From positions 1 to 41,326 of IMG/VR virus record IMGVR_UViG_2548876945_000011: a stretch of 41,326 nucleotides of DNA. One strand, 5' to 3'. This DNA is from a virus (lineage: Duplodnaviria; Heunggongvirae; Uroviricota; Caudoviricetes). Below are positions 2,597 to 14,590 of this stretch, piece after piece (positions within the stretch are counted from its first letter, which is position 1; every line of letters starts with the position of its first letter). Made by a program: the position numbers and the translations under genes. Under the pieces are notes generated by a model. It did not search any database and was not told the origin of the DNA. It saw nothing but the letters and a program-made list of their open reading frames with translations.

Positions 2597-3406
2597 TTAT
2601 TCTTCTGAATTATCGATTACACTGTATTCCCCGGTTAATACAGAGGAGTCTGCCGGATCGATTGTCAGTGGTTCCTTTTCATCCATTGATACTGCACGCT
2701 GGATTTCAATTGAGACAGGCAGGTATTTAAACAGGCGACGAATAGCCGTTTTTTTTGCCATTTCTTCCCAGTGAGTTACCCATGGCCCGTTATTACCAGC
2801 CTTACTCTGGCTGCGCACCAGTTCAATCTGTTTGCGCGTCATAACTTCAAACTGAGTCCCTCCGTCTTTCAGTCTTGCGACAGCATAGACGTGGGTCACT
2901 GGTGCATCTTCGTTTTCTCCCGGGCGGTGTATTAACTTTTCATCAAGGCCAAATTCAAAACTAAACTCGTCACCTTCACGGACAACACGGGCTGACAGGC
3001 TGGCGATTTGACCAGAACGGCGAGCCAGATCAATCATGCCGCGATAACCAATGATTAGCTGAACGTTCTTTTTACCGCTCTTTTCGTTTTTATTACCAAA
3101 AGGCAGTAAATATGCGTGGCCGAGGGCGCTACCTGGCTCAAGGCCGAGCTGTGAACACTGAACGATCGCACTGACAAAACTCATGGTGTCACAGTTTCCT
3201 AGCGCCGGAACCTTACGAATTTCTGTGGTGGCGATACGTATCATTCGTTCAGCCGTCATATGGCGTGGGAGAGCTGCTGCCAGTTGCTCTTTCATTGATG
3301 GCTGATTAATAAAGCTGATCACGTCGTTATTTTTTACTGCTGCTGGTGCACGGTTTCCCTGGGTTTTTTGCAGATCGGCTTTTGCGATAGGTGGTTGCTT
3401 AGTCAT
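2597..3406 (-). CDS. recT: RecT single-strand annealing recombinase
   Basis: 269-aa product from [13 protein letters not shown]...; matches my memory of Rac RecT; AAGGAG RBS 7 nt upstream. Confidence 0.9.
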
Positions 3407-6050
3407 TTGCATACTCCTTAGCCCAGCGGGGCAGTGATAACGTTTTAATAGCTGGCCATTCATCGGTATTCAGGCAGTCAGCCAGGGTCCTCAGATTGCG
3501 GTGATATTCCTGCTGGCCTGCCAGTTTTGCTTCTTCGCCCATCATGAAAATCTCAACCGGGTAACGTCCGCATTCAACAGTTGTGCTGGCAACCAGAAAA
3601 ACGAAAGTTGGCAGCACGCCAAACTGTGCTTCATAACCGTCACTGTAGAATGCATCCTGAACGTGATAGCGGTAGTCGTAATAAGCCGTTTTGAATCGTT
3701 GAATATCCGCTGTGGTTTTCACGTCCATGATCCAGTGAAATTCAGGAATAATTTTGTCCGGACGGCACCGACACAAAATTCCTGTTTCCGGATCTTCCCA
3801 GTAAATTGATGATTCAGCGTGTCCGGCGCTTTCAACAAGCCATTGCCCCAGCGGCAAAGCCATAACGCTTTGATACATGAGTTCAATTTTCCGGCCTTCT
3901 TCCGCAGTGATAACCGTTTTTCCTGTGCTTGCGCATTCCATCAGAAACGCTTTCTCTTCTTCTTTTCCGGCGTTTGTACGGCGGTTAAATTCAGGTGCTA
4001 CGATAAAGCGGTTACTGAATTCTTCCGGTTCAAGTACCCGGCAGTGGAAAGCGGTTCCTAAATCGAGCGTTTTTGTCTTTGTAGTGTCCACGGGGGCATT
4101 TTTACGCCACAAATACAGTGCCGGAGTATCAGCAATGTCATCGAGCTGAGACTTACTGACACCGGGACCCGCGTGGTAATTCTCATTCGAAATTCCGTAA
4201 TAAATACCTGGCTCTATGTCTTCTACGATTACGGGATCTGCGACTTCGCCAGTTTCATCACTGCAATCGCGATGCGGATCGCTGCCAGCATTCTCATTGT
4301 GCGGATGTTCAGCGCCTTCCATTTCCTCCGGATCTTTTTCCTTAGCTTCAACCTGATTCTCTTCACCGAATGTTTCCTGGTATGTTGCGTCGCCCATCAC
4401 CGCACCACAGTCAGGGCAGTTATCCCCGCCAGTCTGACCGCAGGCATTGCAGACTATTTCCGGTTCCTGTTGCACTACTGGCTCAGGTTGTTTCGCATCC
4501 GGGCTGATTTTTTCCGTTTCTGGCTGGTTCTGGTACACAGAATCGCGAGTCTGGATCCCCTTAACCCATTTCGGATCGTTCGGGTCGCTAATCCCTTCAA
4601 CAAATTCTCCGCGAGAGGCAGCCAGTAATTTGTCTGCATCGACAGGATTTTTGGGCGGAATGTTTTTCCGGGCTTCATGGAGTTCTGCCCGCAGTTTCTG
4701 ATATTTCGCATCAACAGAATTTACCTGTGACTGAGCATCCAGCGACTGCGTGTCCTGATGATGTTCAGTTGCATCCGGTTCCACTGTTTCAGCCGTTGCC
4801 TGTTCATCTGCCATTGCGCAAGATGGTTGCAGTTTTTCTTCATCATCCTGTTTTTCTTCTTCTGTTACACGCTGCGGCATCGGGGCAGAGGAACGACCGC
4901 AGGCAATATCCACGATTTCTGGATCAGGGTTGGCATGATCAGTTTCAGTCAGTACTTTGTTCAGATATTCAGTGACGTGTGCGGGGATAACCTCGATCCC
5001 AATTGGTGCTTCTTTTACGGACGCAACCACGATGGCGCGGGAATAATCCAGCCCACCAGGCATGGTGATGAATTTGTCGCGGAAAACAGAAAAGGGTGGT
5101 TTATTTTCAGCGATAATTTCCTCGACACGTTTAGCGTGTGCCGGATGAAGGTTATAAATGTCCACGTCCATTGAACGAGCCAGTACGCCAGTGGCTACGT
5201 CGCGCGCCAGTGACGTCAGATCGTGAACGAAACCTTCGCCGCGATCGGTGAGGTTCCCGCCGCCAGCATTAGCGCCGGAAGCCGTGCGCGTGATGCGTGA
5301 AACACGATTTCCTTTTCGCCATTCTTTTGTCAGAAGACCGCGATCAATGTGTTCGGTATCCAGCCAGGCTGAAATGAAATTCTTAAATTCATAGGGCTGA
5401 TGTTTTTTCGTGATAGAGAACACTGCCTTAATTGCATCAGTCAGGCGGAGCAGGGCGGCATTATCCAGAGTTGTCGGTTCTGCCATGCTGCGTATGGCCA
5501 ACAGCAGATTCTGGACATAGCTGTTTTCCTGATCCATCTCAAGAGCAGTAATGTGTTTGCGTTGTTCACGGGTGGCATGATGCAGGTATTTCCGATCCCC
5601 GGCAGCATACGTAAAAATGTGCAGAAGACGCTGTGTGAACCGCAAAGTGGCTACAGAGACTTCGCAATCCTGGCAATCCTCGTGGGCGTCTGCCTGCGCG
5701 TTTTCTTCCTGGCCTCCCGCCAGTTCTTTGGTTTCTTGAGCATTATCCTGGTGGTGAACGTCGTCTGGCGCTGCTCCCGGTTTTAGTTCCCAGGTCATGG
5801 AGTCTTTGCTGAGTTGATAGCGTTCACTCCAGGTAAAATCGATCTCACCTTCAGGGGGCAGGTCATTAACGACAGGAAAATTCGTGGCAACAGCTTTAAA
5901 ATAGCTGCTCAGTTTTTTACCTGACTTAACGATCAGGTAGTCCAGAGTGGCACAGGTCGATTCAAAATCGTCGCTTGCCCACAGGACGACGTCAGGTTCA
6001 CCGGATGATTTTTTCGCTTTCCGTAACAGGAAGAGTGGTTTTGTGCTCAT
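3399..6050 (-). CDS. recE: RecE exonuclease VIII
   Basis: 883-aa ORF immediately upstream of and overlapping recT; N-terminus [14 protein letters not shown]... and length agree with Rac RecE. Confidence 0.9.
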
Positions 6051-6444: not shown

Positions 6445-6615
6445 TTAAAGTTCGTGTGCCATCTGGTCTTTTTCGGCACAAGATTCACTGCAATATTTTC
6501 TCGGTTCGTCTTTTGATAAAGTCCCGTGCATGAAGTGGAGCATTCTTTCAATAGCTTTGCTTTCTTCAACGTCTTTTTTGCAAAGGTGGTAAGCACATTT
6601 TATTTTCTTGACCAT
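6445..6615 (-). CDS. ydaE: YdaE-like small zinc-binding protein (below the ORF-track length cutoff)
   Basis: Hand translation gives the 56-aa [56 protein letters not shown]; its ATG overlaps the kilR stop by 1 nt. Confidence 0.6.
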   Translation of the reverse strand: MVKKIKCAYHLCKKDVEESKAIERMLHFMHGTLSKDEPRKYCSESCAEKDQMAHEL

Positions 6616-6836
6616 CACCATGACTCCGCCTTTACAGGTAAACCATCACGACCGAGGAAGACTTTAATCATGCGGTCAGTAATGCATGTTTTTGTGGTCA
6701 GGTTACGAATATAAAGTTTTCGCTTTTTAATATTGTTTGCCGAGGCAATATATGTCCGGCCTTCATGAAGAACATAATCGCCAGGAGTCACACACTGACG
6801 TGGTATTTCATCAGTTCCGAAGTGATGTGCAATCAT
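6615..6836 (-). CDS. kilR: KilR cell-division inhibitor
   Basis: 73-aa product from [21 protein letters not shown]...; matches my memory of Rac KilR; GGAG RBS. Confidence 0.75.
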
Positions 6837-7030
6837 AATTATCTCCATTTTTACAAATGAACTTTGTTGATGCGGTGTCTGGTGCCTCCAGGTGACGTTA
6901 ACCAGTTAACAATTAACGCCGGATACAGAGAACCCACCCATAAGAACCAATACGGAAGTCAACTGGCCTTTTTAACTGTGCCGCGTGCGCTGAGCCGCAT
7001 TCACCGCATCACAAAATTCACTTTAAAAAG

Positions 7031-7070
7031 GGCGGGTATCACAAGGGAAAACAAAAAACGGATACCCGCC
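7031..7070 (-). terminator. Leftward intrinsic terminator upstream of kilR (tL-like)
   Basis: 10-bp inverted repeat GGCGGGTATC/GATACCCGCC; on the minus strand it is followed by CTTTTT. Confidence 0.4.
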
Positions 7071-7295
7071 AAAAGGTAATCAACATGGGTTGTTGCAGCG
7101 GGGTTGTCACTCAGGCGTATGGTCAACCTGACAACCCGGTGCTCCTGTGGGGATTACATGAACCCCCGCCATACTTACCACCGCGCCATTTCGCGGATTG
7201 CCACAACCGGAAGCGCACGGTCGAAGAAATTTAACGACAAGCCTTCTAAGGGAAAAACACCTCCTCCGTGCGCCTTCGTGTTGTGTGCCTGTCTT

Positions 7296-7323
7296 TTTAC
7301 CACTTCAGGCTCGGTGGTATACT
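7296..7323 (+). promoter_or_regulatory. Candidate sigma70 promoter for the zinc-ribbon gene
   Basis: TTTACC, 16-bp spacer, then extended -10 TGgTATACT about 33 nt upstream of the ATG at 7356. Confidence 0.35.
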
Positions 7324-7355
7324 GGAGTTCTCACACAACCAGTAAGGAATTTAGT

Positions 7356-7634
7356 ATGGTAATTACTTCACTCTGCCCTGTTTGTTTGGCTACATCTTCT
7401 GTGCAGACTTTAGTTGAAGGACAGCGCGAATTTTTGAAAATTTATCATTGTCCAAATCATGGTAGTTTTGCCGTTCTTCCTGATCTGGACGTGAAATTGC
7501 AAGCAATGAGGTGTTCGTCGGGTTATAAGATTGAGCATTCGGAAGAGGCTATCAGGCTCGATGCACGCTTACGTGAAAGCATACGCCCAGTAGATGGTCC
7601 TCAGTCGAAAATTCCAGTATTCCGCTCTGTCTAG
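7356..7634 (+). CDS. Small zinc-ribbon-like protein, function unknown
   Basis: 92-aa ORF with CPVC...CPNH motif and AAGGA RBS; occupies the sieB-equivalent position opposite the early-left operon. Confidence 0.5.
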   Translation: MVITSLCPVCLATSSVQTLVEGQREFLKIYHCPNHGSFAVLPDLDVKLQAMRCSSGYKIEHSEEAIRLDARLRESIRPVDGPQSKIPVFRSV

Positions 7635-7646
7635 TTTTCCCCGACT

Positions 7647-7662
7647 GGCACCCTGTGGTGCC
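7647..7662. terminator. GC stem-loop between convergent genes (possible terminator)
   Basis: GGCACC-CTGT-GGTGCC hairpin in the 30-bp gap between the 7634 and 7665 stop codons; no clear U-tract. Confidence 0.3.
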
Positions 7663-7664
7663 GG

Positions 7665-7964
7665 TTACATCTCCTCGATCATCGCATTTGCTACGGCCCG
7701 CAGATCTTCCAGTGCACTTTCAACTTTTGGATCTTTTGCGGTCTCACTGACTTTTTTCATGGCATCAGCCATTCTTTTAATCAGATCATTTGGAGTCTCT
7801 TTCGGGTTAGCAGACACCCTGCTGGCCAGCTCCAGTGCAAGACGTGCATCTTTTGGTGTAATGCCTTTATCTTTTGCCATCTCTGCTGCCAGCTCAGAAA
7901 GCTCGGATGCAAGAGTGAGAACGCTTCTTCCCGTTTTTGACGGATATATATCGTGTGTGAACAT
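7665..7964 (-). CDS. Hypothetical helical protein, first gene of the leftward early operon
   Basis: 99-aa ORF with strong GAGAGGAAAAC RBS; sits where lambda N sits but has no arginine-rich motif. Confidence 0.6.
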   Translation of the reverse strand: MFTHDIYPSKTGRSVLTLASELSELAAEMAKDKGITPKDARLALELASRVSANPKETPNDLIKRMADAMKKVSETAKDPKVESALEDLRAVANAMIEEM

Positions 7965-8133
7965 TGTTTTCCTCTCCCCTTAACGCCGGGGTAGCGGAAC
8001 AAAAACCTGCTGCATAGTTAAAGTTGAACCCTGCCGTCATGTTCTTACGCCTCGGGCTGGCTACTTAACCCCTGACCACTGCCTGGTAACTCGAAGTATT
8101 GCCCTGCATTCTGTGGGGCGGGGTGGGTTGGTA

Positions 8134-8178
8134 TTTTTAGTTTAATAAACATTAAACTTAAGTCAAGTAAAAACTAAA
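8134..8178 (-). promoter_or_regulatory. PL-like leftward promoter with flanking operator half-sites
   Basis: On the minus strand TTGACT, 16-bp spacer, TAAACT; flanked by ACTAAAC and an inverted TTTTAGT; mirrors the PR-like element at 9136-9200. Confidence 0.4.
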
Positions 8179-8249
8179 CCATGGAGCGAACAAACACAAC
8201 GCTTTTGATAAAGTCGTTGCGGTTGTTATGTTTCTATTGGTAGTGAAAG

Positions 8250-8528
8250 TTAGGGAAACTGGCGTCTTGCGTGGATCACGTTTACTACTTCAACGCTTGA
8301 TGTTGTTACGCGGTATAGAATTATATAGTTAGGGTGGGCTACAATCTCACGCAAGCCAGGTACTCTGTCGCTTGGTGGGTATAAATACGGATGTTCGGAT
8401 AACGGCAGCACACAACCCCTTAATCGCTGCCATAAGCGTTCAGCCGCATCTATGTCGAAACGAGCAATATAGCTAGTTATATCATCTAGGTCGGTATCTG
8501 CGCTTTCAAGCCATAACACGGGTAACAT
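8250..8528 (-). CDS. parE: ParE/RelE-superfamily toxin
   Basis: 92-aa product from MLPVLWLESADTDLDDITSYIA... with the ParE-like C-terminal pattern; starts 1 nt after the antitoxin stop. Confidence 0.75.
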   Translation of the reverse strand: MLPVLWLESADTDLDDITSYIARFDIDAAERLWQRLRGCVLPLSEHPYLYPPSDRVPGLREIVAHPNYIILYRVTTSSVEVVNVIHARRQFP

Positions 8529-8529
8529 T

Positions 8530-8721
8530 TTACTGCTTGCTCCGTTCCTTGCGCATTTTAGCAAAGCGTTCTGCCATTCTGCGCTCAACTTCGTCATGGG
8601 GAATTGCTGGGCGCGGATCTGCAAGGCTCGTTGCTACTTTCGCACGCAGCCATTCGTTGTAACTGTTTTCTTGTTCAATGGTTTCAAATTCAGAAACCAT
8701 TGGTGAAAGGGCTCTATTCAT
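8530..8721 (-). CDS. paaA: Antitoxin of the ParE module (PaaA-like)
   Basis: 63-aa product MNRALSPMVSEFETIEQENSYNEWLRAK... with GGAGG RBS, immediately upstream of the toxin; resembles PaaA2 as I remember it. Confidence 0.6.
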   Translation of the reverse strand: MNRALSPMVSEFETIEQENSYNEWLRAKVATSLADPRPAIPHDEVERRMAERFAKMRKERSKQ

Positions 8722-8741
8722 GTTTCCTCCGGTTTTATAAC

Positions 8742-9137
8742 TCAGGCGCGGCGGCATTTTTGCGCCGCAATCCATCTCGCTATGAGATCTTCCATTGATT
8801 CTTTTTTCTGCTTTAACTCGCTGATTATCTGGCGTTGCTCATCCTCAGGGAAGGCTGAAAAAATCTGCAATAATTCCAGTTGATTAGACGTTAACCCTGC
8901 ATGTGGTGGAGAAGCTTCCGGTTGTTCTGCGTATTCCGCATCCAGATACCCTTCCGGCATCCCGTATGTTTGCTCTATTCTTCTGGCAGCCTTTTCTCCA
9001 AACGAGGCCCTCCCACTCATTAGTTGAGATAGGTAGCTCTTCTCTTTGGGTGGCAGAGTTTTATCTTTAAACCACTCCTTGAGACGTAAACGGCGAATTT
9101 CTTTTTTTTGCATGTGGTAATTATCTTTAGTAATCAC
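8742..9137 (-). CDS. paaR: HTH XRE-family repressor (CI analogue, PaaR/RacR-like) lacking a peptidase domain
   Basis: 123-131 aa with HTH (KSYLSQLMSGRASFGEKAARRIEQ); divergent from ydaS; first gene of the repressor-antitoxin-toxin operon. The first in-frame codon is GTG at 9137; the first ATG is at 9113. Confidence 0.7.
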   Translation of the reverse strand: MITKDNYHMQKKEIRRLRLKEWFKDKTLPPKEKSYLSQLMSGRASFGEKAARRIEQTYGMPEGYLDAEYAEQPEASPPHAGLTSNQLELLQIFSAFPEDEQRQIISELKQKKESMEDLIARWIAAQKCRRA

Positions 9138-9200
9138 TAAACAAGCAAATACTTGACTTAATGGTTTATTAAATACTAAACTCGCAAAAAAACACTAAAC
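9136..9200. promoter_or_regulatory. Divergent promoter/operator region (PR-like) with three ACTAAAC repeats
   Basis: ACTAAAC at 9136-9142, 9175-9181 and 9194-9200; TTGACT at 9153-9158 with 18-bp spacer to TAAACT at 9177-9182, upstream of ydaS. Confidence 0.45.
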
Positions 9201-12228: not shown

Positions 12229-12439
12229 GCGAGATTAATTATCAGGAAGGACATGATTTCGTTATGCTTGATGGAGGGCGCTATATATTTTCCTCGCACC
12301 TGTGATAAAAATGATGAGCCGAGACTGTATTTACGGGACGCTGAGAGAATACCATAGAAAAGCTTATCTAACTTAAGTAGAATTGCTGCGGGTGCTTGAG
12401 GCTATCTGCCTCAGGCATGAACACCAAAGGCAGATAGAG

Positions 12440-12510
12440 AAAAGCCCCAGTTAACATTACGCGTCCTGCAAGACGCTTAACATTAATCTGAGGCTCAATC
12501 TATGAACGGC
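12440..12510 (-). ncRNA. sok: Sok-like antisense RNA (antitoxin of the hok locus)
   Basis: Minus-strand promoter TTGCCT (12545-12540), 17-bp spacer, TAACCT (12522-12517); the transcript would be complementary to the mok start region. Ends are approximate. Confidence 0.4.
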
Positions 12511-12558
12511 AAATCTAGGTTAGCCTCTTACGTGCCGAAAGGCAAGGAGAAGCAGGCT

Positions 12559-12714
12559 ATGAAGCAGCAAAAGGCGATGTTAATCGCCCTGATCGTCATC
12601 TGTTTAACCGTCATAGTGACGGCACTGGTAACGAGGAAAGACCTCTGCGAGGTACGAATCCGAACCGGCCAGACGGAGGTCGCTGTTTTCGTAGACTACG
12701 AATCTGAGAAGTAA
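12559..12714 (+). CDS. hok: Hok/Gef-family type I membrane toxin
   Basis: 51-aa MKQQKAMLIALIVICLTVIVTALVTRKDLCEVRIRTGQTEVAVF...; closely matches the HokD/RelF and HokC sequences I remember; in-frame mok-like leader from 12502. Confidence 0.8.
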   Translation: MKQQKAMLIALIVICLTVIVTALVTRKDLCEVRIRTGQTEVAVFVDYESEK

Positions 12715-14347: not shown

Positions 14348-14407
14348 TCCGAAGCGCCAGCAAAATCTGGCGTCGGGATTGGAACCCCGGATATCGAAAC
14401 GGTGCAT

Positions 14408-14427
14408 ACCGCGCTGGCGGTTTTTTT
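14408..14427 (+). terminator. Candidate tR'-like terminator
   Basis: ACCGC-GCTG-GCGGT hairpin followed by T7, about 60 nt downstream of the candidate late promoter. Confidence 0.4.
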
Positions 14428-14590
14428 ATGCGCTAAGCACAGTCACATTCGCGATTTATGGCGGGCTGTGTGGGGGCACCGAAAGGTGCACCGGATGTTT
14501 CGACCGGTAGTTCCAACCCTGCACAGTTCGCCACCCGATGATTGGAACCTGAAGGTGGTGAGGTAAAAATTATCGAAACGCGAGGTCGTT

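Follow-up and report, generated by a model that had tools for sequence, protein, structure and literature searches.

The window studied here is a stretch of 41,326 nucleotides (nt), meaning the whole of the DNA analyzed (positions 1 to 41,326 of the IMG/VR virus record IMGVR_UViG_2548876945_000011), and it is a Rac/Qin-type lambdoid prophage. Positions 7298-7974 of the window form a mosaic cassette that comprises a cargo promoter, a rightward gene encoding a 92-amino-acid (aa) zinc-ribbon protein (7356-7634, plus strand), a hairpin, and a leftward gene encoding a 99-aa protein (7665-7964, minus strand). An earlier sequence-only reading had singled out these two convergent genes, proposing that the 92-aa CPVC...CPNH protein is expressed from its own promoter toward the first gene of the leftward operon, and both open reading frames (ORFs) are present in the ORF list, the 99-aa one with an ATG start. 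Our analysis leads us to view the 92-aa gene as one occupant of a hypervariable accessory ("moron") slot, since a short promoter-leader module at this site is conserved far beyond the cargo it precedes.

The 92-aa ORF opens at a conserved ATG (7356) with a Shine-Dalgarno (SD) sequence before it and encodes a protein of the form MVITSLCPVCL...HCPNHG.... A longer, 176-aa TTG-initiated reading of the plus-strand ORF ending at 7634 was rejected because its upstream part is not conserved. In Salmonella (locus L004) and Cronobacter (locus L005), the 92-aa and 99-aa genes are likewise adjacent and convergent, and lie between kilR and the repressor gene. A three-genus alignment revealed that the SD sequence and start codon of the 92-aa gene are conserved, and pairwise ratios of nonsynonymous to synonymous substitution rates (dN/dS) are 0.12-0.21, with dS reaching 1.4-1.9, while the other five frames over this region hold 3-6 stops. 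The candidate zinc ligands are C7, C10, C32, and H35 (a C3H set), followed by a conserved C-terminal P-x-F-R/H-S tail. The three cysteines are invariant in the family, and H35 is invariant except for an Asp in one distant 95-aa member; the ligands and the C-terminal motif are kept down to 24-35% identity. That the frame is antisense within the early-left operon, has no family match, and yields a low-confidence structure model might suggest a chance antisense frame of the early-left transcript that makes no protein. The substitution pattern at such high dS, the stops in the other frames, the ligands and tail motif conserved in 28 clusters across genera, and the conserved SD sequence and start codon led us to reject a spurious ORF, which we regard as extremely improbable, and together they show that this is a real gene.

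The protein belongs to a rare family. Its close relatives form five clusters among 5.8 billion proteins, two further relatives (29-35% identity) came from an exhaustive HMMER search over 1.8 billion representatives, and a profile search of the 5.8 billion proteins brought the family to 28 clusters of 88-108 aa, found in Enterobacteriaceae only. All 28 are stand-alone hypothetical proteins with no fused domains and no annotation. The sole Pfam match of the 92-aa protein is to Zn_ribbon (PF23545), at 23.4 bits and thus below the gathering score of 27, and sequence searches of the PDB (phmmer and profile) gave a generic resemblance only, to the N-terminal ribbon of a radical S-adenosylmethionine enzyme (E = 0.003-0.13). 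Searches of both the 92-aa and the 99-aa proteins against Pfam, PHROGs, NCBIfam, and PADLOC returned nothing above threshold, and Foldseek comparison of their AlphaFold2 models with PDB and BFVD gave no match below E = 0.1. The model of the 92-aa protein has four strands followed by two helices, with a mean predicted local distance difference test (pLDDT) score of 63; the strands cover residues 3-40, where pLDDT is only ~70-78. Two knuckles with four conserved Cys/His ligands, the generic mark of a zinc ribbon, are present, and the protein is probably a soluble zinc ribbon that ends in a helical tail. The 92-aa protein has no characterized homolog in either sequence or fold, and hidden Markov model and structure searches placed neither protein in a characterized family, in keeping with the sequence-only reading, which could assign a function to neither.

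The 99-aa ORF, too, is a real gene, with a dN/dS of ~0.1. Its family comprises seven clusters among the 5.8 billion proteins. AlphaFold2 predicts a 4-helix protein (pLDDT 62); PDB sequence searches found designed helical bundles only, and Pfam, PHROGs, NCBIfam, PDB sequence, and Foldseek searches provided no family or fold match. The N-terminal half of the protein is conserved (…MAKDxGITPKDARLALELA…) and the C-terminal half is mosaic. A homolog at an E. coli locus (L007) is 56% identical and is also the first early-left gene there, and nucleotide homology between that locus and the window is kept only over 7822-8001. We also observed that the 5' half of the gene (7822-7964, encoding the N-terminal ~48 residues) is 93% nucleotide-identical to L007, while the 3' half (7665-7821) is unrelated. 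Cargo exchange may use this conserved 5' half as its right-hand recombination junction and the promoter module as its left-hand one. The position of the gene led us to consider a lambda N-type antiterminator, which we rejected because the start of the protein, MFTHDIYPSKTGRSVLTLASEL, carries no Arg-rich motif and there is no family match; the predicted 4-helix structure disfavors it further.

Between the two stop codons, where a GC stem-loop had been noted before, a hairpin is indeed present at 7643-7666 on the plus strand (10 bp, -16.8 kcal/mol, z = -3.3). On the minus strand the same positions form only 6 bp; the hairpin is stable on the plus strand only because its outer pairs are G-U wobbles. 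It is kept in the Salmonella and Cronobacter loci by two-sided changes (G-C to A-T and C-G to T-A). The G-U pairs and the covariation argue that the hairpin is under selection on the plus strand.

Upstream of the 92-aa gene, a promoter scan combined with conservation across loci delineated a promoter-leader module of ~60 nt (7287-7348, plus strand). It begins with a T-rich stretch and the -35 element TTTACC (7296-7301), continues with a 16-nt spacer holding CCAC-N9-GGTGG and an extended -10 element, TGgTATACT (7315-7323), and, after a predicted transcription start near 7330, ends with a C/A-rich leader, CTCACACAACCAG, and the SD sequence TAAGGA (7343-7348). In the scan the promoter appears as TTTACC-16-TATACT at 7296-7323 on the plus strand, with 9 of 12 consensus matches and a TG before the -10. 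What makes this predicted promoter convincing is its conservation across loci and not the consensus scan, and on that basis the earlier suggestion that the 92-aa gene has its own extended -10 promoter is borne out as a conserved predicted site. In the three-genus alignment, near-invariance sets in just upstream of the -35 and lasts through TGgTAT as far as the SD sequence, whereas the coding sequence has only 69% nucleotide identity. The module is also 83-91% identical upstream of the 29-35%-identical relatives of the protein (L013 and L016) and of an unrelated 80-aa gene (L009). Since these loci were retrieved via their proteins and not via the module, ascertainment does not explain the conservation.

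A 30-nt probe from the -10/leader part of the module was then run on IMG/VR and matched 102 contigs, giving 105 module occurrences. The ORFs that begin within 45 nt after the module fall into 16 BLAST-unrelated groups encoding proteins of 59-148 aa; one of these groups is probably a mis-called variant, and we therefore count ~15 cargo families. The zinc-ribbon family accounts for 12 of the 105 loci, another group (F8) is a member of the ECs_2282 family (57 bits), and yet another is an "ECs1072 family" protein. Among 50 unique sequences from the viral contigs, conservation of 60-99% extends for ~28 nt upstream of the probe (covering GCCTGTCTTTTTACCACTTCAGGCTC, the -35, and the spacer), a stretch that took no part in the search, and then falls to background, and the downstream limit of conservation is the SD sequence. 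This footprint, from -45 to the SD sequence, appears to match a promoter with a short leader. Of 5,426 complete E. coli genomes, 84 carry the full module; in contrast to these and the viral contigs, GTDB species-representative genomes gave no match in an exact-pattern scan. At the 88 loci with enough flank, its left neighbors include RecE (64 of 88), YdaE (54), KilR (40), and lambda-type Kil (20), always on the strand opposite the module.

The promoter core, GCCTGTCTTTTWACCAC-N9-10-GGTGGTAT (also written GCCTG(T)CTTTTWACCAC-N9/10-GGTGGTAT), reaches beyond the full module. In O157 it stands upstream of the ECs_2282 gene, where it is joined to another leader (L002, 4556-4600, GCCTGCTTTTAACCAC...GGTGGTATCCT), and an ECs_2282-type cassette is present in 2,062 of the 5,426 E. 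coli genomes. Window positions 7268-7318 are homologous to the DNA upstream of Rac sieB, and the sieB genes of Rac and L007 keep the core as far as GGTGGT. We also noted that the inverted repeat in the spacer, (A)CCAC-N9/10-GGTGG(T) (7300-7317), is always kept in ~50 unique modules while the intervening bases vary; the spacer could thus be a site for a conserved regulator rather than neutral. Two other repeats were considered as RNA structures and taken as chance: a GTTGTGTG...CACACAAC repeat that brackets the promoter is disrupted in Salmonella with no compensatory change, and an inverted repeat joining 7316-7332 to 7607-7623 is not conserved. The C/A-rich leader was also considered as a target or sponge of GcvB, but the energy of its duplex with K-12 GcvB was matched by 35% of shuffled leaders; AgvB is located at a different site, PR' (PMC4104026). 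Collectively, these comparisons indicate a promoter module that is both conserved and portable.

That the promoter and leader are far better conserved than any cargo also fits a cis-acting brake, in which rightward transcription into the early-left promoter, pL, would damp leaky expression of toxic kil/dicB-type genes in the lysogen, the ORFs being secondary passengers or modulators. In every case the module points toward pL, in many loci with 3' ends that overlap and no terminator, and expression of the early-left operons is highly toxic in these prophages (PMC5069750). Interference of this kind leaves the conserved leader and SD sequence unexplained, though, and the cargo ORFs are under clear purifying selection with strong SD sequences; in addition, the plus-strand-specific hairpin after the 92-aa stop suggests a transcript meant to end there. 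We therefore hold a cis-acting brake to be improbable.

The early promoters themselves could be placed by the same promoter scan. A pL-like promoter, TTGACT-16-TAAACT, lies at 8166-8139 on the minus strand and a pR-like promoter at 9153-9182 on the plus strand, and they share a mirrored -35/operator block of ~30 nt. Inverted repeats I1, I2, and I5 join 8141-8182 to 9150-9182, and the exact 12-mer TACTTGACTTAA occurs in the window only at 8158-8169 (minus strand) and 9150-9161 (plus strand). As a further observation, pL (8139-8182) and pR (9150-9182) are near-mirror copies of the form TACTTGACTTAA...TTTATTAAA...ACTAAAC, each with TTGACT-N16/18-TAAACT, and stand ~1 kb apart with the repressor gene and a toxin-antitoxin pair in between. 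The mirrored blocks probably serve as operators for this immunity type. With pL so placed and its operator block shared with pR, the 99-aa gene is the first ORF of a repressor-controlled leftward operon, the position that the sequence-only reading had given it. Comparison of inverted repeats and 12-mers within the window did not find this operator block in the cargo promoter, and the module stays constant although the adjoining repressors differ in type (L004, L005, L013, and L016), which together fit expression that is independent of immunity control.

Comparison with other prophages revealed how sharply the cassette is bounded. A megablast search of positions 7100-8200 against the 5,426 complete E. 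coli genomes gave matches to the ends from ~4,400 records, against ~7 for the middle, and local BLAST showed that left-flank homology to O157/Qin-type loci stops at 7297 and that the right flank restarts at 7975 (97-99% identity over 7975-8400). The left flank is the DicF/KilS locus, where an O157-type prophage (L002) has a bona fide DicF at the aligned position and K-12 Rac has the KilS small RNA (sRNA; PMC8175672), and the right flank consists of pL with its leader. Between these flanks other prophages carry ydfC/ydfB/DUF1391 genes, to which O157-type prophages add a rightward "ECs_2282 family putative zinc-binding protein". The gene order in K-12 Rac is kilR(-), KilS sRNA(-), sieB(+), ydaF(-), ydaG(-), racR(-), so that sieB does lie at the equivalent place and in the same orientation, as had been stated. 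A tblastn search with K-12 SieB against the whole window gave nothing credible, and the window thus has no SieB homolog.

Each of the two cassette genes is also found with other partners. At L007, a SieB protein (PF14163) converges on the 56%-identical homolog of the 99-aa protein, and at Salmonella loci the 99-aa homolog is faced by an unrelated 80-aa helical protein or by a 104-aa protein that matches, through its C terminus (…NPEY..L..TWNPCTK.F…), the C-terminal part of the SieB at L007. This 104-aa slot protein (L011, 5457-5771, minus strand) resembles only the C-terminal, non-membrane part of SieB and in this recalls Esc, a product of P22 sieB; the region upstream of it has no module. The zinc-ribbon relatives in L013 and L016 occupy the same position and orientation in recE/ydaE operons and face unrelated genes, and a 99-aa homolog lies to the right of the module in only 16 of the 88 loci, each with at least 1.5 kb of right flank. 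We further observed that in the Salmonella and metagenomic loci L009-L011 and L013 the recE/ydaE module is downstream of, and co-directional with, replication genes and a Q-like antiterminator (PF03589), and that the antisense cargo slot and promoter module are kept even though recE/ydaE is not divergent from the replication genes there.

These data bear on whether the 92-aa and 99-aa proteins are a functional pair (an effector and its immunity protein, as SieB and Esc, or a toxin-antitoxin-like couple) inherited as a unit. Both families are very rare, and E. coli, Salmonella, and Cronobacter all have the two genes side by side, facing each other across a conserved hairpin, but linkage of neighboring genes accounts for their co-occurrence. 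The zinc-ribbon relatives that converge on unrelated genes, the 99-aa homologs that face SieB, the 80-aa protein, or the SieB-C-terminal-like protein, and the small share of module loci with a 99-aa homolog all make a functional pair very unlikely. A type II toxin-antitoxin pair in particular was rejected because the genes are convergent rather than co-directional and each family has other partners. The swapping of partners instead marks the two as independent modules that are linked here, and the pairing implied by the sequence-only reading is thus not obligate. What the comparisons show, then, is a gene that is real, a position and orientation that are conserved, a module that is conserved and portable, and a cargo that is swappable.

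On this basis, we propose how the cassette may work. A sigma-70 extended -10 promoter, a short leader, and a strong SD sequence (7287-7348) would transcribe the 92-aa gene rightward, against the pL operon. The cargo promoter lacks the prophage operators, so it is expected to be active in the lysogen and straight after DNA entry, and the 92-aa gene would accordingly be a lysogen-expressed one. The plus-strand hairpin (7643-7666) could end or stabilize the short mRNA in this cassette. Upon induction, transcripts from pL (~8139-8166) would cross the 99-aa gene and then, in antisense, the whole cassette, and would run on to the sRNA locus, kil, ydaE, and recE. The collision of polymerases, together with antisense RNA over the full length of the cargo, should then silence it, and by analogy with sieB of P22, which is switched by the antisense RNA sas (PMC12197685, PMC7067206), we infer that convergent pL transcription shuts the cargo off. 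Genes with their own promoter that are antisense to lytic operons are typical prophage accessory loci (PMC7067206). The zinc-ribbon protein would bind a protein or nucleic-acid target, probably in a phage-phage or phage-host conflict, with superinfection exclusion or defense as our first choice of role.

Our confidence differs between the parts of this proposal. We consider it highly probable that the 92-aa gene is an autonomous accessory cassette. An exclusion or defense role specifically is a tentative assignment that we believe somewhat less readily than we doubt it. The proposal taken as a whole, with the cassette in the sieB slot of a Rac/Qin-type lambdoid prophage, is our best explanation, and we rate its chances as about even. 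A broader reading is that the module marks an unrecognized hypervariable hotspot, with variants in a large fraction of E. coli genomes, whose occupants (the 92-aa C3H family, the ECs_2282 family, and ~13 other small-protein families) are new and mechanistically diverse lysogen-expressed exclusion or counter-defense proteins that are silenced by pL on induction; we regard this as possible but doubtful. No description of this slot or of these families was found in the open-access literature, and a literature search for ECs2282 gave nothing.

Several observations weigh against the interpretation that we prefer. The hairpin has no U-tract and was not called by a terminator scan, and most other cargo families of the slot have no such hairpin but an overlapping converging ORF instead. 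The promoter scan alone is not above chance, with 6 promoter-like sites in 2.5 kb versus 3.4 +/- 1.6 expected, and the -35 of the cargo promoter is weak (4/6). The high conservation of the module could be due in part to its use as a recombination junction and not to selection for expression. Since the 92-aa protein lacks the membrane character of SieB, any exclusion mechanism would have to differ. In a search of a defense library, no cargo family of the slot matched a known defense protein, and to our knowledge SieB is the only slot occupant with a documented exclusion role.

The last two points also touch on an alternative in which the cargo is a counter-defense or establishment factor, i.e., a constitutive promoter would fire on DNA entry and a fast-diversifying cargo would neutralize host defenses or condition the cell. 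A fixed promoter serving many tiny unrelated proteins is also typical of anti-defense loci, and here many unrelated, very small proteins (59-148 aa) with no annotated function stand behind one fixed promoter. The cargo proteins match no known defense proteins, and restriction-alleviation genes occur in the same early-left region (Lar_restr_allev in L004 and ralR in L001). The orientation of the slot, however, opposes the early operon, so that the cargo would be silenced just as early transcription peaks; the sole characterized occupant, SieB, is a lysogen-expressed exclusion protein; and no anti-defense homology was found. We therefore judge a counter-defense role to be unlikely and retain the lysogen-expressed accessory cassette as the preferred interpretation.

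The remaining features of the region are those of a lambdoid early-left operon and immunity region. To the left of the 92-aa gene are an sRNA-type locus, a KilR-like gene (6615-6848), a YdaE-like gene (6445-6621), and recE (3399-6050), with the three genes on the minus strand. To the right of the 99-aa gene, a regulatory region of ~285 bp is followed by a PaaA2-type antitoxin and ParE toxin pair (8250-8775, minus strand; PF21217, E = 2e-19; PF05016, E = 5e-16) and the repressor gene (8742-9137, minus strand) of the immunity region, and a cro/YdaS-like gene and then a YdaT gene run rightward from 9211. The PaaA2/ParE pair is inserted between the repressor gene and the early-left promoter and is probably co-transcribed with the repressor in the lysogen; O157-type loci (L002 and L003) have a RelE/ParE toxin annotated adjoining the repressor, resembling the arrangement in the window. 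A near-identical E. coli prophage carries the same annotation, with both the 92-aa and the 99-aa genes listed as "hypothetical protein".

The sRNA-like element at the DicF/KilS position (7026-7150, minus strand) has a strong leftward terminator, GGCGGGTATCCG...GATACCCGCC plus TTTTT (7075-7026), preceded by a 9-bp hairpin (7101-7147). Its flanks align with the O157 DicF locus and the K-12 Rac KilS locus, its body matches neither, and Rfam did not find DicF in it; the element may be a third seed variant of the DicF/KilS prophage sRNA family. Adjoining it, positions 6829-7028 (minus strand) gave a weak, sub-threshold Rfam match to STnc100 (24 bits versus a gathering score of 47, E = 0.022). This stretch spans the conserved DNA between the sRNA terminator and the kilR-like start, and the block GTGCGCTKAGCCGCATTCACCGCATCACAAAATTCACTTT inside it is invariant in Rac, O157-type, and L007 loci. 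Rfam detected no known sRNA under the 92-aa/99-aa region. Elsewhere in the window, gathering-level Rfam matches were obtained at 463-607, 2169-2347, 12390-12564, and 14354-14538; the elements behind them are SraC/RyeA with SdsR/RyeB, the RalA antitoxin sRNA opposite ralR, hok/sok, and IsrK with the C4 antisense RNA, the last located upstream of the late-control region. As SraC/RyeA and SdsR/RyeB are host flank, the left end of the prophage lies near the start of the window.

As regards the window alone, the gain is modest: two hypothetical genes are shown to be real, and positions can be given for their regulatory signals and for pL and pR. Should the occupants of the slot act in phage-phage or phage-host conflict, the module would be a sequence handle with which to harvest ~15 or more uncharacterized families of small effectors, including some that NCBI names by locus tag only (ECs_2282 and ECs1072). 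The cassette would also offer a compact natural system for convergent-promoter interference between a cargo gene and a toxic early operon (kil, a DicF/KilS-type sRNA, and recET). Ordinary as a gene, it is a useful entry to a widespread, uncharacterized cargo hotspot.

Among known systems, SieB (PF14163; Rac, lambda, and P22) is the closest by position. It occupies the same slot, lies rightward inside the early-left operon facing the first leftward gene(s), and has upstream DNA that is partly homologous to that of the window, and it has its own promoter and antisense transcription from pL, documented for the sas RNA of P22 (PMC12197685). The 92-aa protein differs in having no sequence similarity to SieB (no match to the SieB profile in a Pfam scan at E<=0.1), and its gene shows no evident Esc-like internal product. 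SieB, in addition, is a membrane protein of about twice the size, in contrast to a predicted soluble zinc ribbon. The ECs_2282 family (NF047912) of O157-type prophages is closer in protein type, being a small stand-alone zinc ribbon encoded rightward in the same slot behind the same promoter core. Its members have four Cys ligands (CxxC...CxxC) in 66-70 aa, whereas the 92-aa protein has CxxC...CxxH, and in the O157 version the leader differs and no leftward ORF separates the gene from pL, which it faces. NF047912 has a curated cutoff of 37 bits, which the O157 protein (57.3 bits) and cargo F8 (57 bits) both exceed; the 92-aa protein has no NF047912 match at E<=0.1 and a BLASTP E value of 2.6, on which grounds we rejected homology between the two. 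As the profiles of both families were run and neither matched, the 92-aa protein belongs to neither the SieB nor the ECs_2282 family.

The 99-aa gene, for its part, takes the position of the small genes of the Qin dicBF operon (ydfA/ydfB/ydfC) and of Rac ydaG/ydaF, as the small ORF that comes first after the early-left promoter under repressor control and precedes both the sRNA locus and the gene of the division inhibitor (PMC5069750). The 99-aa protein has no sequence relationship to YdfA/B/C or DUF1391, and its gene is longer than ydfA/ydfB/ydfC and ydaG/ydaF, with a predicted 4-helix product of which the N-terminal half is conserved and the C-terminal half mosaic. Prophage morons are accessory genes that carry a promoter and a terminator of their own and are expressed while the prophage is repressed. 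The 92-aa cassette resembles them in being an autonomous promoter-gene-hairpin unit that runs antisense to lytic genes and is present or absent among near-identical prophages; a promoter of its own is predicted (in silico only), and related phages lack the cassette or have another in its place. It departs from them in that the hairpin has no U-tract and the GC content of the cassette is not distinctive. Classical morons, moreover, are scattered insertions, each with its own signals, whereas here one promoter/leader of ~60 nt serves ~15 cargo families at one site. In kind, therefore, the 92-aa gene is a prophage moron that is like sieB by position and like ECs_2282 by protein type and slot, and its less usual feature is that a single fixed promoter and leader is combined with many interchangeable cargo genes at a single site.

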